Part shown: piece after piece, positions 7,992 to 29,033 of the stretch
How positions within the stretch are numbered: the stretch's first letter is position 1
Layout: the number at the start of each line of letters is the position of its first letter
Assembly (NCBI GenBank): GCA_020632135.1
Contig: JACKGC010000001.1
Location: forward strand, 372,241-436,240
Direction: 5' to 3'
DNA from: Candidatus Nomurabacteria bacterium
GTDB lineage: Bacteria > Patescibacteriota > Minisyncoccia > Phycocordibacterales > UBA918
Length of the DNA: 64,000 nucleotides
Translations under genes and position numbers: made by a program
The notes under the pieces: generated by a model
Seen by the model: only the letters and a program-made list of their open reading frames with translations
What the model was told of the DNA's origin: nothing
The model's database searches: none

Positions 7992-8020
7992 GTGCGCCAT
8001 GTGGGACGACGTTAGAACTT
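7992..8020 (+). repeat. Cassette-junction motif copy A; contains GTTAGAACT at 8011-8019
   Basis: GTGCGCCATGTGGGACGACGTTAGAACTT. Confidence 0.75.
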
Positions 8021-8078
8021 TTCTTCAGGAAGAAGTAGAAAAGGAAAACACCTACGGGGGTAGGGTTTCCTGTAGGTG

Positions 8079-8378
8079 TTAACTGGTCTGTATACTGGAA
8101 TGGTGATATAAGCTGGCAAGGAAGGCCCACCGGTCTTCTCGTTTTGTTCCTGGGGGAAGATAGAAGAAAGCTTCCTTGTTTGTTACCCCGTCGAGGAACC
8201 AATCAATTATATCTACCCCTAGATATTTTTTCGCAAGGCGTTTAAACATACGCTTACTGGGGAATTGCACTGAACAGGAATTTTCTACCTCTGGATGTAT
8301 ATACACGTGGTAAATAACCCCAATCTCGTAGCCTCCGTTAAGGGGACTCATTAACAACTCATTCACTCTTATACTCAT
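8079..8378 (-). CDS. Hypothetical protein in an AT-rich cassette
   Basis: Start at MSIRVNELL with a GGGAG RBS 6 nt upstream. The hairpin AACACCTAC...GTAGGTGTT plus a T-tract follows the stop. Confidence 0.5.
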   Translation of the reverse strand: MSIRVNELLMSPLNGGYEIGVIYHVYIHPEVENSCSVQFPSKRMFKRLAKKYLGVDIIDWFLDGVTNKEAFFYLPPGTKREDRWAFLASLYHHSSIQTS

Positions 8379-8453
8379 AACAATCTCCCGCAGATTGGTC
8401 AATGAACTCTTTACAACAAACAATGCACCGTTTCAGGTGCATTGTCAAGTTTT

Positions 8454-8482
8454 GTGCACTATGTGGGACGATGTTAGAACTT
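8454..8482 (+). repeat. Cassette-junction motif copy B; contains GTTAGAACT at 8473-8481
   Basis: GTGCACTATGTGGGACGATGTTAGAACTT. Confidence 0.75.
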
Positions 8483-8485
8483 GTT

Positions 8486-9217: not shown

Positions 9218-9295
9218 AAATATATCCTAACACCAATGTTCATTTAAGCCAGAGACTTTACAGTTTGTGGGTTGCTGATTAAAGCTAAAACTCGT

Positions 9296-9319
9296 TGTGC
9301 GCGATGAGAGACTTGGTCA
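9296..9319 (-). repeat. Copy of the tRNA-Val 3' end (att-like), proximal
   Basis: GTGCGCGATGAGAGACTTGgtcac. 19 nt are identical to the tRNA-Val 3' end, and it shares the GTCAC extension with the 7805 copy. Confidence 0.75.
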
Positions 9320-9426
9320 CCTTCGCATCAACATTTTGTTCGACTTTCAGTCTCCAAAATATTGTGCTACGCGACCCCGGCGCTCGAGTCGTGCTCCCTT
9401 CGGTCCGCGCGATATATTCGCTTTTT

Positions 9427-9480
9427 CGACCAGATTTTTAATGACTGAAAGGAATATAAAAATGGAAGTGCCCTTGTGGT
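9427..9480 (+). repeat. Copy of the junction-element block (GACCAGATT...TATAAAAATGGAAGTGCCCTTGTGGTG)
   Basis: Aligns to the R3 element at 40561-40612. Confidence 0.7.
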
Positions 9481-9514
9481 GCAAGTCTCTCCTCACTCTG
9501 CTAAATCTGAGACA

Positions 9515-9548
9515 CAATAACCCCCAGTCTATGCAGACTGGGGGTTAT
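9515..9548 (-). terminator. 15-bp hairpin immediately 3' of tRNA-Val
   Basis: AATAACCCCCAGTCT-atgc-AGACTGGGGGTTATT. Confidence 0.55.
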
Positions 9549-9556
9549 TGGTCTAG

Positions 9557-9629
9557 TGCGCGATGAGAGACTTGAACTCCCGACCTTCTCGGTGTAAACG
9601 AGCTGCTCTACCAACTGAGCTAATCGCGC
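9557..9629 (-). tRNA. tRNA-Val (anticodon TAC)
   Basis: GCGCGATTAGCTCAGTTGGTAGAGCAGCTCGTTTACACCGAGAAGGTCGGGAGTTCAAGTCTCTCATCGCGCA. Confidence 0.9.
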
Positions 9630-9664
9630 AAATATTAATGTAGGCACTATCGTACCCAATTTTC

Positions 9665-9699
9665 GGAAAAAAACAAGCCGATCCTGGGTGGATCGGCTG
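9665..9699 (-). terminator. Terminator of the small minus-strand ORF
   Basis: AGCCGATCC/GGATCGGCT stem followed by TGTTTTTTT on the minus strand. Confidence 0.6.
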
Positions 9700-9734
9700 T
9701 TAGTACTTTGACCTGGTCGCTAATGCTCCGGTGC

Positions 9735-9908
9735 CTAGTCTGTCTTAAGGTACCGAGCTCGCTGGTCTATCGGATGTCGCGGGGTTGTACGAAGACTTGG
9801 TTGGATGCAACGATGGATCACCAGGTTTGGTAGCGAGCCACGATCTTCAATCGGCCGAGAGAAATTATCGATCTCTGCCCGGGGTTTGGATAGTTCAGTG
9901 GTGGTCAT
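9735..9908 (-). CDS. Small hypothetical protein (57 aa), absent from the ORF track
   Basis: GGAG RBS, then ATG. Sequence is MTTTELSKPRAEIDNFSRPIEDRGSLPNLVIHRCIQPSLRTTPRHPIDQRARYLKTD. A terminator lies downstream. Confidence 0.35.
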   Translation of the reverse strand: MTTTELSKPRAEIDNFSRPIEDRGSLPNLVIHRCIQPSLRTTPRHPIDQRARYLKTD

Positions 9909-9981
9909 GGGTTTCTCCTTTGAATGAGACCGGTAATGTTATAACTCTCTTTTTTCTGTCTGACAAGGTATACTGCTCTCC

Positions 9982-10254
9982 ATGATACAAATGCAGGCGA
10001 TCATCTCCGGGAAGGTGCAAGGTGTGGCGTATCGTGCGTACGTGCAGGAGTCTGCCACAGAGCTCGAGTTGGTTGGGTATGTGTACAACCAGTCAGACGG
10101 AAGTGTGCTCGTGGTGGCTCAAGGTGCAGGAGAAGTACTCAAGGAATTTGTGGAGTACTTGCACGAGGGTTCACTTATGGCGGTAGTTGAGAGCGTGGCG
10201 GTCGAATGGGGAAGTGTTGGGAAAACCTACGATGAGTTTTCAGTGTTGCACTAA
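9982..10254 (+). CDS. acyP: Acylphosphatase
   Basis: ISGKVQGVAYRAYV...GYVYNQSDGSVLVVAQG. TATACT-N7-ATG lies upstream. Confidence 0.9.
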   Translation: MIQMQAIISGKVQGVAYRAYVQESATELELVGYVYNQSDGSVLVVAQGAGEVLKEFVEYLHEGSLMAVVESVAVEWGSVGKTYDEFSVLH

Positions 10255-15598: not shown

Positions 15599-16066
15599 AT
15601 GAATACAATCAGTGATGTATCGTATGGGGTGATACCCCTGCGTCGTGTCGGAGCCGAGTGGGAAGTATTTATGATCCATCAATACAGCCGTATCGGCAAC
15701 AATGCGTACTGGGTCTTTCCCAAAGGACACGCTGAAGCCTCCGAATCACCAATTGAAGCAGCGACCCGAGAACTACATGAAGAAACCGGTTTGACGATCG
15801 AACAGCTCATTACCGAGCCAACATTCTCTGTGTCGTACTCGTTTCTCTATGACGGTGACCAGGTACACAAAACGGTTTGGTTCTATGTGGCTACGGTGTA
15901 TGGAGAGCCACAGCTTGATCCAGAAGAGGTGAAAGAGGCGGGGTGGTATGACCTCAAAGCAGCTCAAACCAAACTCGACTATCAGGACACCAAAAAGCTA
16001 TTCACTGAGGTGTGCACGTTCATACTATCTCCGCAAATGACGGAAAAGCTACACAAGCGCCTCTAA
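15599..16066 (+). CDS. Nudix hydrolase
   Basis: Start at MNTISDVSYGVIPL with TGcTATACT-N7-ATG upstream. Nudix box GHAEASESPIEAATRELHEETGL. Confidence 0.85.
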   Translation: MNTISDVSYGVIPLRRVGAEWEVFMIHQYSRIGNNAYWVFPKGHAEASESPIEAATRELHEETGLTIEQLITEPTFSVSYSFLYDGDQVHKTVWFYVATVYGEPQLDPEEVKEAGWYDLKAAQTKLDYQDTKKLFTEVCTFILSPQMTEKLHKRL

Positions 16067-16420
16067 CTTCACTTTGGCAACAATATCCTCCAAACTACTG
16101 TGTGCTTTGATGAGATAGTCTGTGATAGAACCTTCGTGTGCACCAGCGATATTTTGTACATCATCCATTGCGGTGAGCATAATGACCTTAACTTTCTTGC
16201 CCCACGCATCCTGGCGCAAATGCTCTAGCATTTCGTGTCCGTCCATGATCGGCATGACGATATCGAGTAAAATGAGATCTGGGTGTTTCTCCAACGCTGT
16301 CTCCAGTCCAGCCTTACCGTTTTCAGCGGTGAGAACGGTGAATCCAGCATCAGCAATTGCCTCAGACATAGCTTCTCGGATATCAGCCTCGTCTTCAACT
16401 AGTAGAATTGTTTTACTCAT
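16049..16420 (-). CDS. Single-domain response regulator (CheY-like receiver)
   Basis: KTILLVEDEADIRE...DLILLDIVMPIMDG...KVIMLTA. Confidence 0.9.
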   Translation of the reverse strand: MSKTILLVEDEADIREAMSEAIADAGFTVLTAENGKAGLETALEKHPDLILLDIVMPIMDGHEMLEHLRQDAWGKKVKVIMLTAMDDVQNIAGAHEGSITDYLIKAHSSLEDIVAKVKLEALV

Positions 16421-16495
16421 GATGAACAGATAATAGCATGATGTGTAGGGAGAGGAAAACCCAGGCCAATGGCCTGGGTTTTGGTATTCATTCTC

Positions 16496-17017
16496 TTACA
16501 GGGTGTGAGCAATAATGCTCCATGCGTACATGATGTCGCGCACATACTCTTGTTCGTGCTCCAAGCCACGCTTACGTTTGGCGCCCTTGGCACCCCAGCG
16601 GTATGCGATCAGCAACTCTTCCGCGTGTTGGTAGCCAGCTGGGCGCAAAGTACGGTTGAGGTAGCGTGCTGCTGCCCAAATAGAGTTGTGTGGGTCGCGG
16701 ATATCACCAGCGATGCTGATCCCAGCATACGTGCTTGGTAGTATCTGCATGAGACCGTACGCATGCTCACCAGTGTCAGCTGCTTCAGCTGACACTGCGT
16801 CTGCCTCACAAGCACTTTCTCTCGCTGCGATCGCCATCAACAAATGTGGGGCGAGATCCTCAGATCTGCCTGCGGCAAGAAAAGTTTCGTAGTAAGGAGT
16901 GCAGCGCTGAATGAGCTGCTCCAGGCCATTTTGCCAAACGGCGTTGGCGCCCGCGCCCGCGCTCAGTAGAAATAGGCACAAGAGGGTAGAGAGTTGCAAT
17001 GATGCAAGATGGGCCAT
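16496..17017 (-). CDS. virB1: Lytic transglycosylase (SLT domain), VirB1-like
   Basis: Start at MAHLASLQL (signal peptide) with an AAGGAG RBS. Contains ARESACEADAV...YGLMQILPSTY. Confidence 0.8.
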   Translation of the reverse strand: MAHLASLQLSTLLCLFLLSAGAGANAVWQNGLEQLIQRCTPYYETFLAAGRSEDLAPHLLMAIAARESACEADAVSAEAADTGEHAYGLMQILPSTYAGISIAGDIRDPHNSIWAAARYLNRTLRPAGYQHAEELLIAYRWGAKGAKRKRGLEHEQEYVRDIMYAWSIIAHTL

Positions 17018-17125
17018 GCTTGATCTCCTTCGTGGTACAACCAAATGTAAAATAACAGCAAACAGGAAAACGTCAAGGGTACATATTGACATACAAATTA
17101 ATAAGTGGTGTGACCTAATACTTGC

Positions 17126-17153
17126 TTGCAGGAACAATTTTGCACTATATACT
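17126..17153 (+). promoter_or_regulatory. Candidate promoter for the T4SS operon (TTGCAG-N16-TATACT)
   Basis: Read by eye. It would give a 5' UTR of about 350 nt before virB2. Confidence 0.3.
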
Positions 17154-17511
17154 CACGACAGTACTGTGGTTGCGATCTGTCAAGAGTCGCGAGACTCGTG
17201 ACGAGCATGAAGGCTCTGTCTTCACACAAAAGAACGCAGCAACCATCATCTCGAATTCCGAGCATAGCAGAAGCTCAACAACGGATCTGACCACACCGTT
17301 GTTTGAAAATTACATATTGACCAACAAAAACACTGAAACAGCGTCTGCTGTCAAAGCGGTTTTGTTGTGTGCTATGCTTCGTGATCTGAATTGAGAAGGT
17401 GTCACAACCTTCCCACATCAGCTTGGCTGATGTGAGTGCGGCTTGGCCGTACTTCGTGCCTACGTGCGTTCTGTGCGTGGGGTGGTCACTGCAACAGAAG
17501 GAGAACTCATA

Positions 17512-17808
17512 ATGTTGCAACATCTCAGATTGTTGAGCGCTTGGCTTGGCCAGGCGTTGTTGTTGATGCTCGTCGGAATGAAGGCGAGTGTGGCAGAAGG
17601 GTTTGATGTCCTTGAAGGATTGGCTGAGAATACCTGGCTGACCTTCCGGTCTGATACCGTTTGGTTCGTGATTCTGATTGCCATCGGTTTGTTTGCGATC
17701 TTCGCGATCTTTGGTAGATGGAAGTGGCACCTTATTATCGGCATCGCTGTCGGTGTAACGGTATTGTATGGTGCTGAACGACTTCTGTCCCAGCTGATCG
17801 GTGGCTAG
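17512..17808 (+). CDS. virB2: VirB2/TrbC-like pilin candidate
   Basis: GGAG RBS, a signal-like N-terminus (LLSAWLGQALLLMLVGMKASVAEG), two hydrophobic helices, and the first position in the operon. Confidence 0.55.
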   Translation: MLQHLRLLSAWLGQALLLMLVGMKASVAEGFDVLEGLAENTWLTFRSDTVWFVILIAIGLFAIFAIFGRWKWHLIIGIAVGVTVLYGAERLLSQLIGG

Positions 17809-17829
17809 CCTCTTCTGAGGGATAAATCA

Positions 17830-18135
17830 ATGAATCAGCCAGACATCAAACTAAACTCACTATTCAAGGCTTTGACCGAACGGGTTGCCTTGTTAGGTCT
17901 CGTTCCGTATGGGACCGCAATCCTGATCATCACGATCGGCATGACTTCCATCCCGCTGTTTGAAGAAGTTGCGCAGAGTTGGGCGTTCATGATTGGCGCT
18001 CTTCTCATTGCTGCAGCCTTGCATGCACGGGATCAAGATCTGACCGCCATCATACTGATGCGGGCTAAGATCTTCTGGCGGGGCCGTAGCCCTAATTACT
18101 TCCGTGTCTGGCGTTGCCAGCACTACAGTCCGTAA
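17830..18135 (+). CDS. virB3: VirB3-like protein
   Basis: LFKALTERVALLGLVPYG resembles the VirB3 motif LFKGxTRPxxxxGVP. It lies immediately upstream of virB4. Confidence 0.65.
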   Translation: MNQPDIKLNSLFKALTERVALLGLVPYGTAILIITIGMTSIPLFEEVAQSWAFMIGALLIAAALHARDQDLTAIILMRAKIFWRGRSPNYFRVWRCQHYSP

Positions 18136-18186
18136 CAGCATGAGCGAAGGGGTGCATGGCGCCCCTTCGCGGCAGGAGTACTCTCT

Positions 18187-20679
18187 ATGAGACATGTCCA
18201 GTACGGCGTGGCGCGGACCGCGGGCGGCAAGTGCATGCGACGAGAACCGTCGCATGCGATGCATGTGCCGCACCGACATCACGTCTTCGATGAATACACG
18301 GTCAGTCTGGCCGATGGGAGCTTGATGCAAGTCCTCAGGCTCGAGGGGTTTCGTTTTGAGACAACAGATACAGAGGCGCTCGCCCGTAAGGCGGCTGCCT
18401 TCAACAATCTCTTGCGAAGCCAACACGAACACGTCTACCTCTACACCAACCTGATCCGTCGTCATGAGGATGCGCTCCCGGAGGGGGCGTTTCCACCGGG
18501 TTTCTCCCACGACCTCAACGAGGCGTGGTTGCAGGAATTCCGCGGCGGTAAGGTCTTCACCAACGACTACTATCTCACTATTGTTATGCGCGATCCGTTC
18601 GCGATGGCGAACTGGTGGGAGGAGTGGAAGATGCGATTGACACGTCGGTCGCAGACAGTTGGCCTGAGGGTACGTCAACAGCGTATGGCGAAAGAGTTGT
18701 CGTCCATTGTCACCTCGTTTCAGGGGTGGCTGCATGACTTCGGCACGAAACGTCTCGGGGTCAGTATACTGCACCCGGCAGGGAGTATGGTGCCAGTGCT
18801 TACTTCGGAAGTGCTGCAGCTGCTGTCGTACATCATCAATGGTGAGACAGCACCAGCGCGCTTGCCTTGCAGTACCTTGGCGGAAGCCACGTGTCAGCGG
18901 GAATGGTGGTTTCCAAATGGAACCTTCGTTTCAAAAGGAGTGTCGGAATCAGACACTTTTTATGGGGCGATGTTGTCGCTCCGAGAATATCCCAGCGAAG
19001 GGACTATGAATGGCATCTTTGATGACCTTCTCTCGCTACAGTTTGAGGTGGTGGTAAGTCAGAGCTTTGTGCGTGAACAGAATACGTTTGCACGCAAGCG
19101 GCTGGAGTTACAAAAGCAACGGTATATCTCAGCCAAGGAACACGAGCGAGTCATCAACAGTGTCGAAGACGCGATCGGGGAACTGGCTGCCAGTGAGGTC
19201 TGTTATGGACATCACCACCTCACCATCATGGTGCGGGCGGCGTCTCCAGAAGAACTCGAGTATCGGGTGGCGCTGATCAAACCTATCTTCTCGCACGTTG
19301 GCGTCGAGCTGGTGCGCGAAGGGCTCAACATGGAAGCGGCCTTCTGGGCCCAGTTGCCTGGCAATCGCGAGTATGCGATGCCACGTGGTTGGTCGTTGGT
19401 GAGCACTAAGAACATCGCTGACTTTGCCAGTTTCCACGCCTATGCGCGGGGAGAGGCGGGTGGTAGTTACTTAGGGTCCGCACTGTCGATCTGTAAGAGT
19501 AAGGGCAACACCCCCTACTTCATCAACCTCCATCAGGGAAAGAATGGGAGTACCTGCATTTTCGGTAAGACCGGATCGGGGAAAACGACCGCAGCTGCGT
19601 TTCTGGTCTCACAGTCTCAGAAATACGGCGGTCACACCATTATCTTCGACAAGGATGGCTCGTGGGAAAACTACGTGCGGGCGGAAGATGGTAACTATGC
19701 AACGGTGCGGCCGGGTGAACAAACCGGCTGGAATCCGCTGCAGTTGCCGGATACGCCAGAGAACCGACACTTCGTGAGCGGGTTCGTAAGTCTGCAGTTG
19801 AGTAAAACACTGAAGCAGTCACTGACTCGTGAACAAGAGCGACGGGTTACAGAAGCCGTCAGCCAGTTGTATGACGAATTCGAGCTTACGCAGCGACGTT
19901 ATGCTTTGCTGCGAGAGCTCCTCATCAACAAATCATTACAGGAGGCACTTGAACCTTGGATGGAAAAGGGGCAGTACGGTTGGCTGTTTGACAGCCCCGA
20001 ACACACGCTGTCATTTGACCAACCCATCACGGGGATCGAACTAGGATGGATCCTCGATCAGGGTGAGGTAGTGCGTACCCCGGCGGTATCGTTCCTGCTT
20101 TACTGCACCAAACAGGTGGTCGAGCGGGCACAGCTTCTGCGGATCATCTTGGAAGAAGCTTGGTTCTTATTGCGCGACGAAGCACTCGCCGCACAGTGTG
20201 AGGACTGGGTGCGGACCATGCGGAAGAAGGATGCCTTTCTTTTCTTTCTCTCGCAGAACCTTGATCTTGGCTCTCGAGCCGGGATGGCGATCTATGAGCA
20301 GAGCGCAACCAAGATCTTCTTCCCACCCTTTGCGGCGGAGCGGAAGGTCTACACTGAAACACTCGGGATCACCGAGGCGCAGTATGAGCTCATGTTCGGC
20401 GAGTCGGTTGAATCACGCACCATGCTCATTAAGCATGGTGAAGAAACGGTGGTGGGTGTGCTTGACCTCAGTGTCGTGCCAGAATACCTGCCGATCTTGG
20501 CGGGCGACAAAGAGTCGCTCCAACTAATGCGGAAACTCCGTGCTAAGCATGGTCCGCAGGCAGCTGACTGGCTGCCACACTTCAAAGTGGAGGTACTTCG
20601 TAATGAAAAAGCGAGCCTTGATACTACAGCTCATCGTAGCGACCATGGTAATGTTTGGGTCGAGCGGGATACCCGCTAA
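18187..20679 (+). CDS. virB4: VirB4-family T4SS ATPase
   Basis: 830 aa. Walker A is IFGKTGSGKTT. Length and layout are typical of VirB4/TrbE. AGGAG RBS. Confidence 0.95.
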   Translation: MRHVQYGVARTAGGKCMRREPSHAMHVPHRHHVFDEYTVSLADGSLMQVLRLEGFRFETTDTEALARKAAAFNNLLRSQHEHVYLYTNLIRRHEDALPEGAFPPGFSHDLNEAWLQEFRGGKVFTNDYYLTIVMRDPFAMANWWEEWKMRLTRRSQTVGLRVRQQRMAKELSSIVTSFQGWLHDFGTKRLGVSILHPAGSMVPVLTSEVLQLLSYIINGETAPARLPCSTLAEATCQREWWFPNGTFVSKGVSESDTFYGAMLSLREYPSEGTMNGIFDDLLSLQFEVVVSQSFVREQNTFARKRLELQKQRYISAKEHERVINSVEDAIGELAASEVCYGHHHLTIMVRAASPEELEYRVALIKPIFSHVGVELVREGLNMEAAFWAQLPGNREYAMPRGWSLVSTKNIADFASFHAYARGEAGGSYLGSALSICKSKGNTPYFINLHQGKNGSTCIFGKTGSGKTTAAAFLVSQSQKYGGHTIIFDKDGSWENYVRAEDGNYATVRPGEQTGWNPLQLPDTPENRHFVSGFVSLQLSKTLKQSLTREQERRVTEAVSQLYDEFELTQRRYALLRELLINKSLQEALEPWMEKGQYGWLFDSPEHTLSFDQPITGIELGWILDQGEVVRTPAVSFLLYCTKQVVERAQLLRIILEEAWFLLRDEALAAQCEDWVRTMRKKDAFLFFLSQNLDLGSRAGMAIYEQSATKIFFPPFAAERKVYTETLGITEAQYELMFGESVESRTMLIKHGEETVVGVLDLSVVPEYLPILAGDKESLQLMRKLRAKHGPQAADWLPHFKVEVLRNEKASLDTTAHRSDHGNVWVERDTR

Positions 20680-21379
20680 GACCCTCATTGTCCAAGACCC
20701 ATGGAATCTCATCCACAACCTACACTCAGCTGAGCGACTGGCTGAGATCATCGGTATCTCGGTCGACCAGCTCTATGAGTTGGTGGAGATGGTGGAACTC
20801 ACCACGAAGGTGCTTGATGAAGCGACCCAGATCCACCACGCGACCACCGACCGGTGGGCGATCGAAGAGCGGGTTCGGGTCTTGCTTGACGAACATGTCG
20901 GTACTTGGATCCAGACCAATGTGCCACTGGCATATCATGACCTCATGACCTCACTGGTCAACGGTCACCTCAGCGGCTACTTCACCAGTCTTCGGGAAGA
21001 CTACCCAATGTTGACTGACTACGAACGTGATCCGTGGCACCCTGAGAGTGCGCGAGCGAGGTACTACACCGGCTTGCAAGAGCGGATCGACGCAGCTGAT
21101 GTCATGGTGCAGTATCAGTTTGATCGCGCGCCGGAGACCTACAAGGTCTATGATGGATTGCGCGCTCAGCTGCCACAGCCACACATCAATGGAGCAGTAG
21201 CAGTACTCACGGAGGCGACACTGCAAAGTGCCTACGCCAACGAACAGTTCTATCGAGCTCAGGCGGCCCGGGATGCAGCAGGGCTGCAAGACCAACGTCG
21301 GCTCATCGAAGGGCGCCGTAACTGGGCGAACTTCGTCAATGTGCGAGACCCGGCCACGCGGTTTGGGTTTCTGCGATGA
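20603..21379 (+). CDS. virB5: Secreted helical protein in the VirB5/TrbJ position
   Basis: GGAGG RBS and signal peptide MKKRALILQLIVATMVMFGSSGIPA. It overlaps the virB4 3' end by 77 nt. Assignment is by position only. Confidence 0.35.
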   Translation: MKKRALILQLIVATMVMFGSSGIPAKTLIVQDPWNLIHNLHSAERLAEIIGISVDQLYELVEMVELTTKVLDEATQIHHATTDRWAIEERVRVLLDEHVGTWIQTNVPLAYHDLMTSLVNGHLSGYFTSLREDYPMLTDYERDPWHPESARARYYTGLQERIDAADVMVQYQFDRAPETYKVYDGLRAQLPQPHINGAVAVLTEATLQSAYANEQFYRAQAARDAAGLQDQRRLIEGRRNWANFVNVRDPATRFGFLR

Positions 21380-21439
21380 ATCATCACGGGCTGCTCAGTC
21401 ATAGCGGCTGAGCAGCCCTTTCTTGTAGGAGGAATCACC

Positions 21440-22336
21440 ATGGCAGATGCCCCAGGGTTTCTTGAAGAGAATTTCGTTCGCGTTGAAGAGGAGATAATCT
21501 TCGGTGTCGTATTGAAGGTGTATGAGGGTTTGGTGCATGACTGGCACACGACTCTCGTCTACATGTCACTGATCTTGATCGGTTGGATGGCACTTGAGTG
21601 GTTATTCTTACCCTCGAGCACTACCATTCGTAGTACAGTGAAGAAGATGCTCATTCTGACCATTGTCTGGGCGTTCTTGAAAAATTTCAGTACGTTCGCG
21701 ACCTTTGTGTACAGACCGATCGTGCATGGCCCGAAGGAGCTTTCGGCTTCTATAGTCAGTGCCCTGACGGGTAAAGAAACAAATTCGTATGCGAGTTTGG
21801 ACGGGCTGCTTGATGCGGCCATTGCGATCGTCTTGCAACTATTAGACCAGGCTGGTTTCTCGGTCGAAGGGATCGGATTCCTTGCGCTCGCGCTCTTCTT
21901 CGCTCTGTTCGCAGGGCGAGCGATCGCTGAAGCTGCAGGATACATCCTCATCATCATTGTCGTGACTGGCGTGCTGATGTTTTTCGCACCGATCGCCATT
22001 GCCTTTGCGATGTACGACTGGTCACGCGGGGTCACTAAGGCGTGGTTTCGCGCGCTCGTGGGAGTAGCCTTTGCGCAAATATTCTTGCATGCAGCCTTAG
22101 TGCTCATGCTCGGTATCATTGGTGACAAGGTTCTCTCAGGTGCTATTGGCACCGAAGAACTCGATGCGCAGTGGGTCTTTCTCAGCATGCTGCTGATGTA
22201 CCTGGCGTTTCGCGTATTCCGCGCCGCCATGGGTAGGGCCGATGCGCTTTCTGCAGGGATCATGGCTGAATCAAGCCGTGACCTCAAAAGTTCCATCGCA
22301 TCGCTGAAGCAAGCGGTGCATCGTCGTAAGAAATGA
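21440..22336 (+). CDS. virB6: VirB6/TrbL-like polytopic membrane protein
   Basis: Multiple TM helices, GGAGGA RBS, and its position after virB5. Confidence 0.7.
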   Translation: MADAPGFLEENFVRVEEEIIFGVVLKVYEGLVHDWHTTLVYMSLILIGWMALEWLFLPSSTTIRSTVKKMLILTIVWAFLKNFSTFATFVYRPIVHGPKELSASIVSALTGKETNSYASLDGLLDAAIAIVLQLLDQAGFSVEGIGFLALALFFALFAGRAIAEAAGYILIIIVVTGVLMFFAPIAIAFAMYDWSRGVTKAWFRALVGVAFAQIFLHAALVLMLGIIGDKVLSGAIGTEELDAQWVFLSMLLMYLAFRVFRAAMGRADALSAGIMAESSRDLKSSIASLKQAVHRRKK

Positions 22337-22361
22337 TAACGCTCACAACGGAGGTACGCTA

Positions 22362-22526
22362 ATGAGGTTCATCATCCTTGGATTATGTTCTCTGGGTATT
22401 GTTGCGTGCGGTAGTACCGTACCGATGGTCTCAGATGATTCACCTTGTACGGGTGTGCTCATTGAGCACGAGCTCGTGCGAGACTCGTATCCACTACTAC
22501 AAAAGGGGTCCGACCATGCAGAGTGA
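22362..22526 (+). CDS. virB7: VirB7-like small lipoprotein (54 aa), absent from the ORF track
   Basis: GGAGG RBS 7 nt upstream. MRFIILGLCSLGIVAC|GSTVPMVSDDSPC... with a lipobox Cys. Lies between virB6 and virB8 and overlaps the virB8 start. Confidence 0.5.
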   Translation: MRFIILGLCSLGIVACGSTVPMVSDDSPCTGVLIEHELVRDSYPLLQKGSDHAE

Positions 22527-23304
22527 ATCCAACGTTATTCAGTTGAGTGACCCACACGTGCCAGCGGCACTGCAGGAGGTCATGCAACACTTCTTCCAGT
22601 ATGCCGGTCGCCAAGAGGCAGACCATATCGCTCGCGTGCGCCGCCTAGTGCGCGCCGCTGTCATGATGCTGGTTGTGTCACTAGCGATCAGCGCTGCTGG
22701 CGTAACCACGCTCTATCTGATCTACCAAAGATTGCCTGAGCTCACGCACGTGCAGTACGGATTGATCGAGGTCGACAAAACTCTCGGACAGGTGCGAGAG
22801 ATCAAGATGCTCACTGAGCCATACAAGATCAATACAGCAGTTCGTAACAATTTGCTCGCCGACGTTCTGCGTCAGCTGGAGCAGTACGATTCTGACTTGA
22901 ATCGGTATTGGGCAAATAATGTGTATTGGTTTGTGACCGATGAAGTCTTCGAGCCATACTTCGCCCGTCTGAAACAGCGAATGGACGAAAAACAGCAGCG
23001 GACCACACTGATTGAGATCACGGTTCCGCCGGTAGAGATCACCACACATGCCAATGACGGAGCGAAGAACACCTCAGTCATTGAGTACAACCAAATTGCT
23101 AGGTCTGCCGATGGGAGCGAGGAAGTGTTCGCAAAAAAAGCGTACCTGACCTACCGCTTCGTGCCATACAAGAAGTTGGCCCCCGGGGAGACCTATACTG
23201 AAATGCAGAGATTAAAGATGTTGAAAAACCCCTTTGGTCTCGTGGTGAGTCGCTTCTCAGTTGAGAACATCTTCACCCAGCACACGAAAGAGGTAACACA
23301 ATGA
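22516..23304 (+). CDS. virB8: VirB8-like bitopic protein
   Basis: Start at MQSESNVIQL. Cytoplasmic N-terminus, one TM helix (AAVMMLVVSLAISAAGVTTLYLIY) and a periplasmic domain. Confidence 0.6.
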   Translation: MQSESNVIQLSDPHVPAALQEVMQHFFQYAGRQEADHIARVRRLVRAAVMMLVVSLAISAAGVTTLYLIYQRLPELTHVQYGLIEVDKTLGQVREIKMLTEPYKINTAVRNNLLADVLRQLEQYDSDLNRYWANNVYWFVTDEVFEPYFARLKQRMDEKQQRTTLIEITVPPVEITTHANDGAKNTSVIEYNQIARSADGSEEVFAKKAYLTYRFVPYKKLAPGETYTEMQRLKMLKNPFGLVVSRFSVENIFTQHTKEVTQ

Positions 23305-24197
23305 AACAGCTACTCATGCTGATAGGCCTTCAGTGCCTACTGTCAGTACTGGTGGTGCACGCGGCAGCAACGCCCGAGCGCCAGTTGGTGGATGCTAAGA
23401 CAGTGAAGTACTCGTATCGTCACGGCCAGACCTATGAGCTGGGATTGACGGTCGGGTACCTCTCACTGATCGAGTTTCCGGTGGCAGAGACGATCGTCGA
23501 AGCGACCAGTGCCGCAGATCCGGCAGTGTGGGTGACCTCACAACCGGCCCCGCACCTCTTCACGATCAAGACTGTCCGTGCTGGTGGCGATGTGAACTTT
23601 CTCATCACCACACACGATGGTCTGCAGTACCGAACGTATATGTTCCACATCACAACTACTGAGGTGATCGCAGCTGATGCTGCGGACCCAGAGCCGATGA
23701 TGTGGCAGGTGCAGTTTGAAGCACCACCGACACCAATGGTGCTGGCTGGCAAATCAAAGACACCAGTGGCACCGCCGCCTAAGCGGCCGAGCCTCCTTGA
23801 AGCTACGCCGTCAGCCCTGCGTCACTACACGTACGAAGGGTCCGGCAACCAACGTCTAGCGCCCGTGGTGGCGTTTGATAACGGTAAGTTTACCTTCCTG
23901 CGTTTCTCACCCGATCGGCCTTGGCCGGTCATCTACGTGTCCGATCTGGTCACGGGTAAGGAGCGTTTGGTGAATCCACGCCAAGAAGGCCCCGACATCA
24001 TTGTGGAGGGCGTCTATGGCAAGTTGGTGCTGCGCTACGGTACCGAGGCACATGCGTGTCTATGGAATACCAGGCTGGTCACGCCGGATTCAGACGAGAA
24101 GACCTTCTCGATCATGGCTCCGGCACGAACTGGTTTGGCAAAGAAAAAACCAGCTAATCTAACGGGAGAGACATATGACCCGCTCAACAACCTCTGA
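23301..24197 (+). CDS. virB9: VirB9/TrbG/CagX-like protein
   Basis: Signal peptide. N-terminal domain WVTSQPAPHLFTIKTVRAGGDVNFLITTHDGLQYRTYMFHI. C-terminal domain YTYEGSGNQRLAPVVAFDNGKFTFLRF...LVNPRQEG. Confidence 0.8.
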   Translation: MKQLLMLIGLQCLLSVLVVHAAATPERQLVDAKTVKYSYRHGQTYELGLTVGYLSLIEFPVAETIVEATSAADPAVWVTSQPAPHLFTIKTVRAGGDVNFLITTHDGLQYRTYMFHITTTEVIAADAADPEPMMWQVQFEAPPTPMVLAGKSKTPVAPPPKRPSLLEATPSALRHYTYEGSGNQRLAPVVAFDNGKFTFLRFSPDRPWPVIYVSDLVTGKERLVNPRQEGPDIIVEGVYGKLVLRYGTEAHACLWNTRLVTPDSDEKTFSIMAPARTGLAKKKPANLTGETYDPLNNL

Positions 24198-25335
24198 CGG
24201 TGGTAACGACCGGCAGCGAGAACGTGAAGCGTTGGAGCAAACGCTCAACCAGCAGAACCCGACCGACCGGTTGGGTCTGCGTGATCCAAAGTTGCTCTTC
24301 ATAGTGGCACTGGCCGCACTAGCGGTGCTGGTAACCTACTTTCTCTCCGGAGATACAGAACCACGCCAGAAAGTCACTGAGGCAGAAGTGTTGGAGGAGC
24401 CAGTGCATGGCCCGCCGAAGCATTTTCCGAAACAACGATCTTTCCTTGATGATCTCAAGCGAGAGATCGTACCAGGAGAGTCACTTGTGGAAACCGACGC
24501 ACAGTTCTGGCGCAAGAGTGCCGCGAGTGGAAAAGCAATTCGGCTTGATACCCCTAAACCGCCCACGGTCGCTGCTACCAAGCGCGCCGGGCAGGCAGGG
24601 GAGTATCATGCTGCTGGCTACAATGCGCCGCCGCCGCAAAATGGCAGAGCGCAAGTGGCAAAAGCAGAAACCGGCCCGTACGACGACCCGACGGTCAGTC
24701 AGTACGTGCAGACCGTGCGTCCGGAGACACTCTGGCACAACCAAAACCGCATTAAGCGTGGTAAGACGCTCACTATCATCATGGAGCGTCCGATCGTCAG
24801 CACCTTCCCTTCGAAAGTGAAGGGGTATCTGGTTGAGCCGGTGTATGCAGAATCTGGTGATCAGGTGCTGCTGCCCCGGTACACTGAACTCCACGGCACT
24901 GCAGCCAATGAAGAGATTGGCAATACGCAGGACCGGCTCGGAGTGATGTGGGAATACGCGGAGTACCGCGTCCATGGTGCGACCGACGGTATTGTCCGGG
25001 TCCCGTTTGAATCAGCGGTCTATGACCAGCTGGGACGGGTCGGCGTCGCCGGGAAGGTGAACACCTTCTTCTGGCAACGCTTTGGTAACGCACTTCTTAC
25101 TTCTTTCATTGGGGCGGTTGCGAGTAATGTCGGCGCTGCCACTGATGATGCGAGCAATGCGCAGCAAGCGTACATCGAGGCCTTCACGCACTCAACACAA
25201 CGTGAGGCGCAGCGCTCACTTCAGGCTCAAAATGTCTGGAAGCCGCGCATAGATGTTTCACGCGCGATCATTGTCACTGCCTTCGCCCAACGGGATATTC
25301 TGTGGGAGGAAGGTCAGGCTGAGGGCTTGCGATGA
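24175..25335 (+). CDS. virB10: VirB10/TrbI-like protein
   Basis: N-terminal TM helix, Pro-rich region and a TrbI-like C-terminus (LPRYTELHGTA...QDRLGVMWEYAEY...DQLGRVGVAGKVNTFF). Confidence 0.8.
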   Translation: MTRSTTSDGGNDRQREREALEQTLNQQNPTDRLGLRDPKLLFIVALAALAVLVTYFLSGDTEPRQKVTEAEVLEEPVHGPPKHFPKQRSFLDDLKREIVPGESLVETDAQFWRKSAASGKAIRLDTPKPPTVAATKRAGQAGEYHAAGYNAPPPQNGRAQVAKAETGPYDDPTVSQYVQTVRPETLWHNQNRIKRGKTLTIIMERPIVSTFPSKVKGYLVEPVYAESGDQVLLPRYTELHGTAANEEIGNTQDRLGVMWEYAEYRVHGATDGIVRVPFESAVYDQLGRVGVAGKVNTFFWQRFGNALLTSFIGAVASNVGAATDDASNAQQAYIEAFTHSTQREAQRSLQAQNVWKPRIDVSRAIIVTAFAQRDILWEEGQAEGLR

Positions 25336-26348
25336 ATGCGCATAATGCTCTCGATCGGTACCTTGGGTACCTAGAACGATACCTCAATGACAAGGATGTT
25401 GTTGAGGTGATGATCAACAAACCAGTCAGTACGTCCGGCCCTGCTACTGTGTTCGTCGAACGCGGCGGGGTGATGGAGCAACACGAAGACACTGAACTCA
25501 CGTTCGATCGACTGCGGCAGATCGCGCAGTTGGCGGCGAGTTACTCAGATCAACCTGAGCACACGGAGGCGTATCCGCTCATTGCGGCCACACTCCCCAC
25601 GGGAGAGCGGGTGCAGGCGGTACTCCCACCAGCAACGGTATCAGACCGAGTGGTCATCGCCATTCGGAAACACACACATACCAACTTGAGTCTGGAGGAT
25701 TACCGCGACAACGGTGCCTTCCGTTTGACCAAGCAGACCAATCTCGAGAGTGAAAACATCTACCGAGAACTCGAATCGCTCTACCGAGAAGGAACGTTCT
25801 ATGAGTTCACCAAAATGGCGATCGACTCACGGTTGACCATCCTGATCTCAGGAGGCACGTCCAGCGGCAAGACCACATTCTTACGGGCCTGCCTACGGGC
25901 TATTAGTCAAGACGAGCGGATCATTACGATCGAGGACAGTCTGGAGTTGCAGTTAGTACGGCCCAATACGGTGCCGCTGTTGTATCCACGACAAGGGACA
26001 CAGACCAACCGACACACGGCGCAAGACTTGGTGCAGGCATCACTACGCCTACGTCCCGATCGCATCTTTCTCGGAGAGCTGCGGGGACCAGAAGCCTTTG
26101 ATTTTCTCGAAGCGGTCAACTCGGGGCATCCGGGGAGCGCTGCCTCCATCCATGCCAACTCCTCGTATCTGGCGCGCGCAAAACTGGCAATGCTTGTCTC
26201 GCGCGCTAAGACCAACATGACCTACGACTCGATCGTCCGTTTAATCGACACGACCATTGATGTTGCGATACACTGCGCGCGTCGTGGTCCGGGGGATTGG
26301 GGTATCCAAGAAGTGTATTTTCCCAAAGCTGCTGCGGCGGCTGAGTGA
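25332..26348 (+). CDS. virB11: VirB11-family traffic ATPase
   Basis: Walker A is ISGGTSSGKTTFLRA. Also IFLGELRGPEAFDFLEAVNSGHPGS. Confidence 0.9.
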   Translation: MNAHNALDRYLGYLERYLNDKDVVEVMINKPVSTSGPATVFVERGGVMEQHEDTELTFDRLRQIAQLAASYSDQPEHTEAYPLIAATLPTGERVQAVLPPATVSDRVVIAIRKHTHTNLSLEDYRDNGAFRLTKQTNLESENIYRELESLYREGTFYEFTKMAIDSRLTILISGGTSSGKTTFLRACLRAISQDERIITIEDSLELQLVRPNTVPLLYPRQGTQTNRHTAQDLVQASLRLRPDRIFLGELRGPEAFDFLEAVNSGHPGSAASIHANSSYLARAKLAMLVSRAKTNMTYDSIVRLIDTTIDVAIHCARRGPGDWGIQEVYFPKAAAAAE

Positions 26349-26402
26349 TTGGTCAGTATGTGTTTGTAGTTCTTTTACGATCCAGTTCATTTCGATCTTT
26401 CT

Positions 26403-26437
26403 CAAGCTCGCACTTCAGTGCGAGCTTGCTTTTTTTA
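26403..26437 (+). terminator. Terminator closing the T4SS operon
   Basis: CAAGCTCGCAC-ttca-GTGCGAGCTTG followed by CTTTTTTT. Confidence 0.8.
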
Positions 26438-26483
26438 TACTTCGCGGTAGGCTGACAAAGGATTTTTGAAGGAGGATCCGTTC

Positions 26484-26978
26484 ATGATAAACAGTACAGT
26501 TGATGAGTATCTCCGTCTCATTGATGCCGGCAAACGGGAGCAAATACCCCTTGCGGCGCAGCAGAAGCTGTCACAAACCGTGCAGTTGACTTCAGAGGCA
26601 GGGCCGTTCCATGATCTTGTGATCAAGAAGCGGTTCGAGCCGGTCCATGCGATCGCGGTCTATGGCACCTTCATTGTGCGGGATTGGTTTGCAGCCATTC
26701 GTGATGTGCTCGGCGGACGAAGCCGTTCTAGTCAGAACGTTATCGTTGATGCCATTGAGCAGGTACAGAATGAGGTGCGACTACGAGCCTGGCAACAAGG
26801 CGCCAACTACGTCGTGGGATTCCACCTGAGCGTAAGTGAAGTATCAGGGAAGGGGAAAGCGATGCATACTGCATTTGCGTACGGCACACCATTGGTGGTT
26901 GAGCAGCTTCCACTGGCTGAGCAGCGACACATGATCGCGCAGCAGCACCTGCCGCGGGGAGAGGCTCAAGAGCCTTGA
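26484..26978 (+). CDS. YbjQ/UPF0145-family domain protein with an N-terminal extension
   Basis: AAGGAGG RBS. VRDWFAAIRDVLGGRS...AWQQGANYVVGFHLSVSEVSGKGKAMHTAFAYGTPLVV. Confidence 0.6.
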   Translation: MINSTVDEYLRLIDAGKREQIPLAAQQKLSQTVQLTSEAGPFHDLVIKKRFEPVHAIAVYGTFIVRDWFAAIRDVLGGRSRSSQNVIVDAIEQVQNEVRLRAWQQGANYVVGFHLSVSEVSGKGKAMHTAFAYGTPLVVEQLPLAEQRHMIAQQHLPRGEAQEP

Positions 26979-27045
26979 CTAGCATCAGAATTGTAGTACG
27001 GTAGTAGCGTACTAAGTGGTGCGGTAACTTAAGAGGAGGTGCACC

Positions 27046-27639
27046 TTGTTCATTCGTATACAGTTTCTGTTGGTGGTCGCGCTTTTGCTGGCTGGTTGTG
27101 CAAGTAACCCACGTGGCTCAGCCACCGACCCAAAAACGTCTGCGGTAGCGCAGTGTGTCGCTGATCAGACAGCTCAATCCACTGCTGGCGGCATCACACG
27201 CAGTACGCGTGAGGTCACGCTCATGTGTGAGCTAGAACGGCTCATTGCCCAGCATCGGGTGCAGGTGCCGGATGTGTCGCTTCACACAGACACCGGAGAG
27301 GCCGCGAGCGTGGTAACGCTTCAAGCAGCCGCCGGCTTTGCGCCGGGTGGCACGTTGCTCAAAGATCCAGTGGTGCCGCTGTTGGAACAGCTCGGCTGGT
27401 TGCTCTATGCTGTACCGGATCTGAAGGCGCACGTGGTGGGGCATACCGATAGTATCGGTGAACGCGCCGTCAATCAGCGCTTGAGTGAGCTGCGCGCCGA
27501 AGTGGTCGCACGGCAGTTACTTGCCTACAGTGGTAATGTCACTGCAGCCGGCAAGGGAGAACTCGAGCCGGTCGCTGACAATCGCTACGCACCAGGACGA
27601 GCCCAAAATCGGCGCGTCGAGATCATATTCAGCTTCTGA
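27046..27639 (+). CDS. OmpA-family (peptidoglycan-associated) lipoprotein
   Basis: TTG start with an AAGAGGAGG RBS, lipobox LLLAGC, and an OmpA_C-like tail GHTDSIGERAVNQRLSELRAEVVARQL...RAQNRRVEI. Confidence 0.75.
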   Translation: MFIRIQFLLVVALLLAGCASNPRGSATDPKTSAVAQCVADQTAQSTAGGITRSTREVTLMCELERLIAQHRVQVPDVSLHTDTGEAASVVTLQAAAGFAPGGTLLKDPVVPLLEQLGWLLYAVPDLKAHVVGHTDSIGERAVNQRLSELRAEVVARQLLAYSGNVTAAGKGELEPVADNRYAPGRAQNRRVEIIFSF

Positions 27640-27660
27640 GTCCACGGTGACTGGGGAGCA

Positions 27661-27690
27661 AAAGGCGGGGAATACATTCCCCGCCTTTTT
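27661..27690 (+). terminator. Terminator
   Basis: AAAGGCGGGGAA-taca-TTCCCCGCCTTTTT. Confidence 0.75.
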
Positions 27691-27740
27691 ACGTGCTTTG
27701 GTTATTGTTGGTGCAATTGCTCTGGTACTATATATGTGCA

Positions 27741-29033
27741 ATGCAATCTACGAAGAAGATCCGTTTTCTGCGAGGACTTGAGCGCCTACTTCTCGTCTTT
27801 ACGATGTTGATCGTGGTGTTACTCGCGGTGTTTTCTGCCAACGGTAATCTGGGTGTGCAAGAATCGTATGCGGGTGGCGGTATAGTGGTCGCTGCTCTTT
27901 TGATAGTCTTTTTGATCCAGCATAGTATTGACTCCTCAGTTGCGGTCGTCGAATCGCAAGCAAACTATCTGCAAGATGATGCTCTTGCTGCGTTGTTTGA
28001 CCGTAGCCCCGTGGCGTACTTGATCGTTGATAAGCAGGGGCGGGTGGTAGAAGGTAATGTGGCTGCAGTAAAACTGCTGAAGGGAGAGGTGGCTGCGTTG
28101 CCAGGGTTGCCCTTCTTTAATTTGTTGGCAGGTATGGAAGAAGACCAACATGATGTGCTGATCAGCAAAATCAAGGCAGGATTGACCATAAACGACCTGG
28201 AGGTGCCGATGCAGACCTTGCGTGCAGATGAGTCGGTCTGGGTGCTCCTCTCTGTGTTCGCGTACCGTAATGCCGGACAACGCTTACTTACGTTGGTTAA
28301 TGTAACTGAGCAGAAGAAGGTCGATACCGCGAAGTCTGAGTTTGTGGCACTGGCGACACATCAACTCCGTACACCGATCGCTGCTATTCGTTGGAATGTG
28401 GAGTTGCTTGAGAAGCGGCTCATGAAGGGGAAGACCGACAGTCTTGAAAAGTATGCGGACAAGATCGAGCGCAACACCTTGCGTATGATCGATCTTATCA
28501 ATGATTTCCTCAGTGTGTCGAAGTTGGAAATGGGTACCTATGCAGCCAAGACCGAACCGACAGACCTGACTGATTTCGTCGACAGTATCCTCGATGAGTT
28601 TGCCGAGAAGATCACACAAAAGCAGATCAAGATCGTGCGCACCGATGATCCGCCGCATGTGGTCATCGAAGCTGACAGTCGCTTGTTCCACATCGTAGTG
28701 AGCAATCTGGTTTCCAATGCGGTGAAGTACCTTAATCCGGCTGGACAGATAGAATTACAATACTCGCTCAGCGGCAATGTACTGCAGTTGGCAGTGGCTG
28801 ATGACGGTATCGGTATTCCAAGTGATGAGTTGGGTGACCTCTTCACGAAGTTCTACCGCGCAAGCAACGCTCGTTCACACCAAACCCAAGGTACCGGCTT
28901 GGGGCTCTACATTGTAAAGGAGTCGGTTAAGCAAATGGGCGGTGAGATCACTGTTGAGTCAGAAGCAGGACAGGGTGCGCGTTTTGTGGTGACACTACCT
29001 GTGCAAGTGGTATCAGCTGGTGAAACGAGCTAA
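27741..29033 (+). CDS. Sensor histidine kinase (TM, PAS-like, HisKA and HATPase domains)
   Basis: Start at MQSTKKIRF with TATATA-N6-ATG upstream. H-box ATHQLRTPIAAI. G-boxes DDGIGIP and GTGLGLYIVKE. Confidence 0.9.
   Translation: MQSTKKIRFLRGLERLLLVFTMLIVVLLAVFSANGNLGVQESYAGGGIVVAALLIVFLIQHSIDSSVAVVESQANYLQDDALAALFDRSPVAYLIVDKQGRVVEGNVAAVKLLKGEVAALPGLPFFNLLAGMEEDQHDVLISKIKAGLTINDLEVPMQTLRADESVWVLLSVFAYRNAGQRLLTLVNVTEQKKVDTAKSEFVALATHQLRTPIAAIRWNVELLEKRLMKGKTDSLEKYADKIERNTLRMIDLINDFLSVSKLEMGTYAAKTEPTDLTDFVDSILDEFAEKITQKQIKIVRTDDPPHVVIEADSRLFHIVVSNLVSNAVKYLNPAGQIELQYSLSGNVLQLAVADDGIGIPSDELGDLFTKFYRASNARSHQTQGTGLGLYIVKESVKQMGGEITVESEAGQGARFVVTLPVQVVSAGETS

Follow-up and report, generated by a model that had tools for sequence, protein, structure and literature searches.

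We identified, in a 64,000-nucleotide stretch of DNA (the window, to which all coordinates refer), a complete and intact VirB1–VirB11 type IV secretion system (T4SS) locus at positions 16496–26348. We consider it probable that the locus forms the core of an 11.3-kb horizontally acquired island, which carries a complete apparatus of the mating-pair-formation type T (MPF-T) and has been kept under selection as a stand-alone translocation device in a Kaiserbacteria-like member of the Parcubacteria, within the candidate phyla radiation (CPR). What was observed directly is the set of genes and its insertion, that the host belongs to the CPR, that sister loci exist, that the motifs are intact and that codon usage is like that of the host. 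Judged from its sequences, the T4SS is a canonical though divergent MPF-T (P-type, VirB-like) system of an ordinary class; what makes the locus unusual is its CPR host, not the machine.

All 13 open reading frames (ORFs) of the island are intact. The gene set was established with Pfam, run on every window ORF of at least 120 aa, together with NCBIfam, profile–profile alignment (hhalign) and motif reading, and the order from virB1 to virB11 is kept, with virB1 alone on the opposite strand. An earlier sequence-only reading of this DNA had described a complete set collinear with the Agrobacterium virB order, and this description holds: Pfam E-values from 1e-13 to 6e-32 were obtained across VirB4, VirB6, VirB8, VirB9, VirB10 and VirB11, and VirB3 and VirB5 were supported by hhalign.

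At the left end, divergent from virB2, lies a gene for a VirB1-like lytic transglycosylase (16496–17017, minus strand) of 173 aa, corrected from the 213 aa given earlier, which has a signal peptide, a Pfam SLT match (1e-15) and the ES, GLMQ and AYxxG motifs, and is 29–35% identical to the products of the SLT genes that immediately precede virB2 in alphaproteobacterial loci. All following genes lie on the plus strand. The VirB2-like pilin (17512–17808; 98 aa) has a signal peptide and two hydrophobic segments and matches Pfam TrbC/VirB2 at 3e-6, scoring 27.8 bits against a cut-off of 27.9. VirB3 (17830–18135) has a weak Pfam match (3e-3); aligned by hhalign with alphaproteobacterial VirB3, it scored 94.7% (E 6e-8), with the C-terminal motif W-C-x-x-Y-x-P in common. 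The VirB4 ATPase (18187–20679; 830 aa) matches Pfam CagE_TrbE_VirB (3e-31) and TIGR00929 (1.5e-159), and its Walker A motif, GKTGSGKT, is intact. The next gene (20603–21379), encoding 258 aa with a signal peptide, had been called VirB5 by position only; the position was right, but the gene is a real, divergent virB5. Direct searches of Pfam, NCBIfam and PDB with its product returned no match, whereas hhalign against two solid PF07996 members gave 97.1% (E 6.5e-11), the link being made via intermediate sequences only. A four-sequence profile that includes two PF07996 members matched TrwJ (2e-16) and TraC (9e-14), both of which a two-sequence profile alone missed. An AlphaFold2 single-sequence model was all-helical, with a pLDDT of 47.5, too low to use.

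The channel genes follow. VirB6 (21440–22336) matches Pfam TrbL/VirB6 at 7e-23. The VirB7-like lipoprotein (22362–22526; 54 aa, lipobox IVAC) was assigned by position, size and motif, and its PCTG motif recurs in the lipoproteins of 46 and 54 aa that occupy the corresponding place in L005 and L091, two sister loci described below. VirB8 (22516–23304) matches its Pfam family at 1.4e-13. VirB9 (23301–24197; Pfam CagX/VirB9 2.5e-31) has a signal peptide and both domains, and its residues 35–249 align to PDB chain 6gyb_b. VirB10 (24175–25335; Pfam TrbI/VirB10 2.7e-25) comprises an N-terminal transmembrane helix, a linker, the beta-barrel and the antenna helices, with PDB matches (TrwE, X. citri VirB10 and TraF) extending into antenna helix alpha2. 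The VirB11 ATPase (25332–26348; Pfam T2SSE 6e-32) scores 322 bits with the NCBIfam equivalog TIGR02788, 'P-type DNA transfer ATPase VirB11', whose cut-off is 250 bits, and all four of its motif boxes (Walker A, Asp, Walker B and His) are intact. Two further genes complete the island: a YbjQ-like gene (26484–26978; Pfam YbjQ_1 1.2e-12), whose product has an N-terminal extension of ~45 aa and, as read from the sequence, no signal peptide, and a gene for an OmpA-family peptidoglycan-binding lipoprotein (27046–27639; lipobox LLAGC, Pfam OmpA 8e-9), whose best NCBIfam matches are of the YiaD, PA1041, TssL and YfiB types, all under cut-off. Sec or lipoprotein signals were read on VirB1, VirB2, VirB5, VirB7, VirB9 and the OmpA-like protein.

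The assignment to MPF-T draws on several parts of this set. The nearest relatives of VirB4 are alphaproteobacterial, both chromosomal and plasmid-borne; the inner-membrane components VirB3, VirB6 and VirB8 are all encoded; VirB2 and VirB5, each a weak or divergent match, supply the pilus; and the outer-membrane core complex (OMCC) is represented by the VirB7 lipoprotein, VirB9 and a VirB10 with antenna. The earlier statement that outer-membrane-complex genes are encoded here is thus confirmed by the CagX and TrbI matches and by the VirB7-like lipoprotein.

The island comprises three transcription units bounded by hairpins. Within the main operon, neighbouring genes overlap by 77 nt (virB4/virB5), 11 nt (virB7/virB8), 4 nt (ATGA; virB8/virB9 and virB10/virB11) and 23 nt (virB9/virB10), and an intrinsic terminator with an 11-bp stem followed by a T-run lies after virB11 (26403–26437, plus strand). 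A tightly coupled operon closed by a strong terminator, as first described, is therefore present, with an extra hairpin inside it, between virB5 and virB6. The terminator does not mark the end of the locus, as had also been proposed: the whole unit is larger (~16421–27740) and takes in the YbjQ-like and OmpA-like genes, the latter followed by a terminator of its own (27667–27692, plus strand). At the other end, the SLT gene is closed by a palindromic hairpin (16456–16482; 12-bp stem, 7 GC pairs). The hairpin between virB5 and virB6 (21388–21418, plus strand) has a 13-bp stem, a folding energy of -32 kcal/mol and a z-score of -4.55. In each of the three full-length lineage loci a GC-rich hairpin separates the virB5 stop from the ribosome-binding site of virB6; its sequence differs from locus to locus, and the counterparts lie at ~6890–6924 in L005 (z -3.58) and ~5006–5030 in L091. 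Its role may be that of an attenuator or of an element that stabilises the mRNA, adjusting how strongly the pilus genes are expressed relative to the channel genes.

The island (~11.3 kb, 16421–27740) is inserted between the start codons of a divergent pair of host genes, which encode a stand-alone response regulator (RR) on the left (16049–16420, minus strand; Pfam Response_reg 1.6e-24) and a PAS histidine kinase (HK) on the right (27741–29033, plus strand; Pfam HisKA and HATPase_c). Four related metagenome loci (L085–L088), found by a metagenome scan anchored on GH3, preserve the empty site: the HK and RR starts lie ~45 bp apart, and the order GH3-p294-HK / RR-NUDIX-L19-RluD-UppS is kept, at identities to the window of 75% for L19 and RluD, ~50% for GH3, 66–67% for RR and 46–47% for HK. 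A metagenome scan anchored on the unknown protein p294 returned no relatives. The RR–HK interval consists of exactly the SLT gene, virB2–virB11, the YbjQ-like gene and the OmpA-family lipoprotein gene; since the last lies within this interval, we count it as island cargo, and it is not present in the empty-site relatives. Both island edges keep recognisable short remnants of the ancestral intergenic sequence, and no flanking direct repeats of at least 8 bp, att sites or integrase were found at the island. The RR gene now lies downstream of the SLT gene on the same strand, separated from it solely by the SLT terminator hairpin, which lies 35 bp from the RR start codon; the original RR promoter region was probably displaced by the island.

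The composition of the island was compared with its flanks, as the sequence-only reading had suggested, and its codon usage proved indistinguishable from that of the flanking genes (distance in relative synonymous codon usage 0.549, against a null of 0.534 +/- 0.150; p 0.41). GC content at third codon positions (GC3) is 0.63 in the island and 0.56 in the flanks, within the range of the flanking genes. DNA recently arrived from Caulobacterales or Sphingomonadales, which are high in GC, would show a GC3 well above 0.63.

The host is a Kaiserbacteria-like member of the Parcubacteria. More than 120 relatives share 87–97% identity with the NusG encoded in the window, and those that carry a taxon name are without exception Kaiserbacteria, Parcubacteria OLB19 or 'Patescibacteria group'. 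Identical copies of the window's proteins are deposited in GenBank under two assemblies, labelled Candidatus Kaiserbacteria and Candidatus Nomurabacteria, and the accession numbers of these copies ascend along one 651,216-bp contig in the order in which the window encodes them, beginning with PilM, continuing with the VirB proteins and ending with NusG and L11. The flanks consist of chromosomal housekeeping genes (L19, UppS, RluD, RuvX, six tRNAs, ribonucleotide reductase (RNR), NusG and L11), and TGA serves as a stop codon in the window. The expectation of a reduced, CPR-like genome was thus correct for the marker and its named relatives, and by its NusG the host is not a typical diderm; nor does a VirD4 or relaxase gene adjoin the operon in the 64 kb searched.

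The source is a metagenome-assembled genome (MAG), the island has a slightly higher GC content than its flanks (0.55 against 0.515), and its nearest outside relatives are Alphaproteobacteria, all of which would fit a proteobacterial T4SS fragment misjoined to a CPR contig during assembly or binning. Against this, the island junctions of the 651-kb GenBank contig are 100% identical in three further contigs, one from a second GenBank assembly (GCA_020428785.1) and two from Logan assemblies of separate runs, and one 31.5-kb Logan contig spans both borders. Codon usage is host-like, the GC3 of 0.63 is well under that expected of Caulobacterales or Sphingomonadales DNA, and island proteins are only 22–43% identical to those of any proteobacterial T4SS. 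Because the junctions recur, a single contig carries host genes on either side of the island and the NusG relatives belong to the CPR, misbinning or chimerism is very unlikely, to the point of being negligible.

The affinities of the apparatus point to Alphaproteobacteria. When GTDB representative genomes were scanned with VirB4, Alphaproteobacteria accounted for 79 of the 80 best loci (Caulobacterales, Sphingomonadales, Hyphomonadaceae, Micavibrio and Rhizomicrobium), at 31–36% identity, and the best plasmid VirB4 matches, also alphaproteobacterial, reached 32–33%. The VirB4 phylogeny that had been proposed as a route to the donor was computed by neighbour joining only, without typed MPF reference sequences; it grouped the window and L005 proteins in 100 of 100 bootstraps and placed them on a long branch beside alphaproteobacterial MPF-T, leaving their exact sister open. 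In the closest non-CPR locus, L006 (VirB4 36% identical), genes for VirB5, VirD4 (PF02534, 7e-98) and a MobA/VirD2 relaxase come directly after virB10, and since L006 carries VirD4 and a relaxase, the likely ancestor is a conjugative MPF-T module.

The related loci vary in their own make-up. VirD4 was found within 10 kb in 5 of the 80 and a relaxase in 3; most of the related alphaproteobacterial chromosomal loci, such as L008, L012, L019, L020, L025, L040, L073 and L082, thus have no VirD4 or relaxase gene within that distance. Several of the alphaproteobacterial loci pass straight from virB4 to virB6, with no VirB5, and in the Caulobacter-type loci virB11 is followed by genes for DUF1800 and Tat-signal proteins.

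Sister loci of the island were found in at least three other contigs, with a parcubacterial host shown for one of them, L005, which lies on a 58-kb contig of a GenBank MAG labelled 'Patescibacteria group', next to an ABC ATPase gene whose relatives (63–74% identical) are CPR-named only. L091 lies on a 63-kb JGI contig, where it adjoins TyrRS, and L092 is a 1.8-kb fragment that keeps virB11-ybjQ. A VirB4 word-index search had returned L005 only, and L091, whose VirB4 is 50% identical, surfaced through a YbjQ search, so that this census of the lineage is incomplete. In L005 and L091, which lie at differing chromosomal positions, VirB2–VirB11 and ybjQ follow one another as they do in the window, at 28–52% identity to it: 51–52% for VirB11, 49–50% for VirB4, 44–50% for VirB9, 45–49% for the C-terminal part of VirB10, 35–36% for VirB5, 33% for VirB6 and 28–30% for VirB8. 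Compared with each other, the two are 56–71% identical, with VirB7 at 46% and YbjQ at 49%. Across the lineage VirB9 and VirB10 are no less conserved than the VirB4 ATPase. The antenna is the best-conserved segment of VirB10 in the lineage (57%, against 47% for the barrel); between pairs of alphaproteobacterial VirB10 proteins no other C-terminal region is less conserved. Because all genes were retained across such divergence, we infer purifying selection.

The antennae of the three lineage VirB10 proteins are also the longest and most polar among 65 sequences, with Kyte-Doolittle values of -0.75 to -1.25 against +0.25 +/- 0.32. We considered this polarity as an adaptation to an envelope without an outer membrane and rejected it: the antenna of pKM101 TraF, which crosses an outer membrane, has a value of about -1.2 (calculated by hand over 19 aligned residues), and since it is similarly polar, a polar antenna is not diagnostic.

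These loci bear on the question of whether the island is an inert remnant of an integrated conjugative element that has lost its DNA-processing module and whose genes have not yet decayed. The island shows no type IV coupling protein (T4CP), relaxase, integrase or att repeat, as such a remnant would; its host group is presumed to lack an outer membrane, and the authors of a 2025 survey were undecided on the function of such systems (PMC12102498). It is also absent in relatives, no VirB4 above ~50% identity having been returned, as against the more than 120 relatives of NusG at 87% or above. Set against these points are the 13 intact ORFs with their overlapping starts and stops, codon usage that has drifted to the host pattern, a gene set and order that persist at 28–52% identity with an OMCC conserved like the ATPases, and a virB5/virB6 hairpin whose position is conserved in three loci. 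We therefore judge the remnant improbable. The bounded insertion, the host-like codon usage and the diverged sister loci that keep the OMCC genes instead speak for long-term retention rather than for a recent dead-end transfer.

The YbjQ-like (UPF0145) gene follows virB11 directly in all four loci of the lineage (counterparts at 11914–12393 in L005, 10001–10435 in L091 and 1157–1612 in L092), with its extension of ~45 aa conserved; none of the 79 alphaproteobacterial loci yielded a counterpart. Neither L005 nor L091 carries an OmpA-like gene. By this pattern of occurrence, the YbjQ-like protein is the one lineage-specific component and its gene the sole conserved non-VirB gene. To our knowledge, no link between YbjQ and a T4SS has been reported, and the family is flagged here as a conserved, previously unremarked T4SS partner.

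Neither VirD4 nor a relaxase was detected in the 64-kb window by Pfam, and a six-frame tblastn of the window with the VirD4 and relaxase proteins of related loci gave nothing better than E 0.4, in agreement with what had been noted from the sequence alone. Likewise, neither was found in L005, L091 or L092, the search extending to 10 kb around the full-length loci, with a shorter flank on one side of L005. The missing adjacent T4CP and relaxase is thus a conserved trait of the lineage loci, as distinct from a proof for the whole genome. A rival reading is that of a conventional T4SS which recruits a coupling protein from some other place in the genome to move DNA or effectors that depend on VirD4, the lack of a T4CP being due simply to the 64-kb span of the search. 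Of 3,035 Patescibacteria genomes, 2,918 (96%) have VirD4 homologues, for the most part at a distance from virB4 (PMC12102498); among diderm systems the nearest relative, L006, combines VirD4 with a relaxase; and VirB11 belongs to the 'P-type DNA transfer ATPase' equivalog. On the other side, none of the three full-length lineage loci has either gene within the distance searched, few relaxases are recorded from Patescibacteria (109, in 103 genomes; PMC12102498), and the resident VirD4 homologues belong to an unrelated MPF-FATA-like system, whose cross-talk with MPF-T is hypothetical. We regard such a conventional transfer system as unlikely.

Under the reading that we favour, an alphaproteobacterial-type MPF-T module would have been acquired as an island and retained by selection in a few Parcubacteria. 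It would not be self-transmissible and would serve, in the manner of the Brucella VirB system, as a contact-dependent pilus and translocation device rather than in conjugation. A VirB2/VirB5 pilus and a channel would be assembled, powered by VirB4 and VirB11, and the apparatus would act on the partner cell on which the presumed epibiont lives. Our most parsimonious guess is that the VirB10 transmembrane helix and the lipoproteins hold the VirB7/VirB9/VirB10 ring to the cytoplasmic membrane, that the ring spans the wall and surface layer, and that the OmpA-like lipoprotein anchors it to peptidoglycan.

Patescibacteria are thought to lack an outer membrane (PMC12102498), and a bolder version of this scheme is that a small lineage of Parcubacteria has domesticated a diderm T4SS whose VirB7, VirB9 and VirB10 assemble and work without one, or that the cells of this lineage have an unrecognised outer layer able to hold them, with the YbjQ-like protein as an accessory and the machine reaching the host cell. 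To this we give a modest chance at most. In such a case the YbjQ-like protein could, for example, be a cytoplasmic substrate receptor or chaperone that replaces the coupling protein.

Several observations weigh against a maintained, stand-alone device. We know of no way for an OMCC to work without an outer membrane. The scores of VirB4 (including that for TIGR00929), VirB9 and VirB10 fall under the NCBIfam equivalog cut-offs, and no substrate or effector family was recognised at the locus. The evidence for a CPR host covers two of the four loci, the window and L005, and all four available copies of the window are 100% identical, that is, one population was sampled. A T4CP acting in trans from elsewhere in the genome, beyond the 64 kb covered by the search, is likely, because VirD4 homologues are near-universal in Patescibacteria. 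Finally, the Walker B motif of VirB4 is EE and not DE (residues 655–657 are L-E-E where h-D-E is expected). We rejected this Asp-to-Glu change as a sign of inactivation: L-E-E is found in the VirB4 of the window and of L005 and in 2 of the 56 other VirB4 proteins compared, and because these two of the 58 are non-CPR proteins, the change is not taken as inactivating.

Three things lend the locus interest: the system is well documented in Parcubacteria and apparently maintained there, its loci consistently have no T4CP or relaxase gene beside them, and a YbjQ-like gene accompanies it. If none of these holds, it is simply another horizontally acquired VirB operon. It also makes a question testable, namely whether a VirB7/VirB9/VirB10 core can be functional without an outer membrane or whether some Parcubacteria have one.

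Beyond the island, the window contains several other features. At 4857–7482, pilM is followed by three small genes without a family match and then a tRNA gene; no secretin gene adjoins them, as would be expected of a type IV pilus in a cell that has no outer membrane. Class I RNR genes (49388–52548) have an ATP-cone fused to the small, NrdB-like subunit, and the large subunit of 560 aa shows no ATP-cone match. In the nusG and rplK (L11) region (55442–57727), rplK is followed by a CofE/F420-ligase-like gene and not by rplA, with no L1 seen in the window. A giant ORF (57797–64000), which runs off the window end, encodes more than 2,066 aa with 27 FG-GAP repeats (Pfam 9e-238) and is probably a large surface protein or adhesin. 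Low-GC patches at 8000–10000, 40000–44000 and 46213–46875 (0.33–0.44, against ~0.52 elsewhere) carry genes for methyltransferases, a phosphodiester-glycosidase-like protein and NUDIX proteins, of which the whole window encodes four, and may be further acquired segments.

ComB is not known to have VirB1 or VirB11, nor Ptl to have VirB1, and Ptl is linked to its toxin (ptx) genes. The locus shares a VirB-type core with Bordetella Ptl, Helicobacter ComB and the Neisseria gonococcal genetic island (GGI), and Ptl is also without VirD4, and the arrangement had first been likened to ComB and Ptl. A T4CP-independent machine for DNA uptake or release, or a periplasmic toxin exporter, would be in keeping with the fact that the classic T4SSs without VirD4 are of these kinds (PMC12857230), with the dependence of CPR bacteria on scavenged nucleotides, and with a weak NCBIfam match of ComB10 to VirB10 (5e-10). 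However, the last scores far under the VirB10 families, VirB5 is missing from ComB, Ptl and GGI according to a 2025 T4SS review (PMC12857230), and the island encodes VirB1, VirB5 and VirB11 and has no toxin genes adjacent. ComB and Ptl are thus a poor match, and a function of either kind appears quite improbable.

With Agrobacterium VirB/VirD4, pKM101 Tra and R388 Trw, the locus shares all VirB homologues in collinear order; its VirB9 and VirB10 align to solved OMCC chains (6gyb, 7o3j and 3jqo), and its VirB5 is linked through the profile to TrwJ and TraC. Unlike these systems, it has no VirD4 or relaxase nearby, its VirB4 identity is ~32–36%, and its host is presumed to have no outer membrane.

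The usual T4SS of Patescibacteria, which goes back to Gram-positive conjugation machinery, is derived from the monoderm MPF-FATA type, within whose clade its VirB4 is nested; it has no VirB7, VirB9 or VirB10 and is essential for epibiotic growth in Saccharibacteria (PMC12102498). The island resembles this Patescibacteria-clade system in phylum and in being chromosomal, and that system, too, is usually without a relaxase and often has a VirB2-like pilin (PMC12102498); the island differs in that its VirB4 groups with alphaproteobacterial MPF-T and that OMCC genes are encoded. Among 2,474 Patescibacteria VirB4 proteins, the 2025 survey recorded 2 of MPF-T and 2 of MPF-F and left their functionality open (PMC12102498). 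The locus belongs to this rare, Gram-negative-like class of Patescibacteria systems and could be among the survey's own two MPF-T cases. The combination of OMCC genes with a CPR host, described as unexpected at first, is therefore rare, but already on record.

Systems without a T4CP are known to serve periplasmic export (Ptl), effector translocation (Brucella), adhesive pili and DNA uptake (PMC12857230), and by gene content the closest analogue of the island is the Brucella VirB system, rather than ComB or Ptl. Brucella has virB1–virB12, no T4CP, and an OmpA-like VirB12 after virB11 (bioRxiv 10.64898/2026.02.18.706537; PMC12857230). Both systems encode VirB1–VirB11 in order, with no VirD4 or relaxase in the operon, on a chromosome and with alphaproteobacterial affinity, and both have an OmpA-like gene after virB11, likened here to VirB12 at the level of the shared domain. 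They differ in that virB1 is inverted here, that a YbjQ-like gene stands between virB11 and the OmpA-like gene, and that Brucella is a diderm intracellular pathogen, whereas the host of the island belongs to the CPR.

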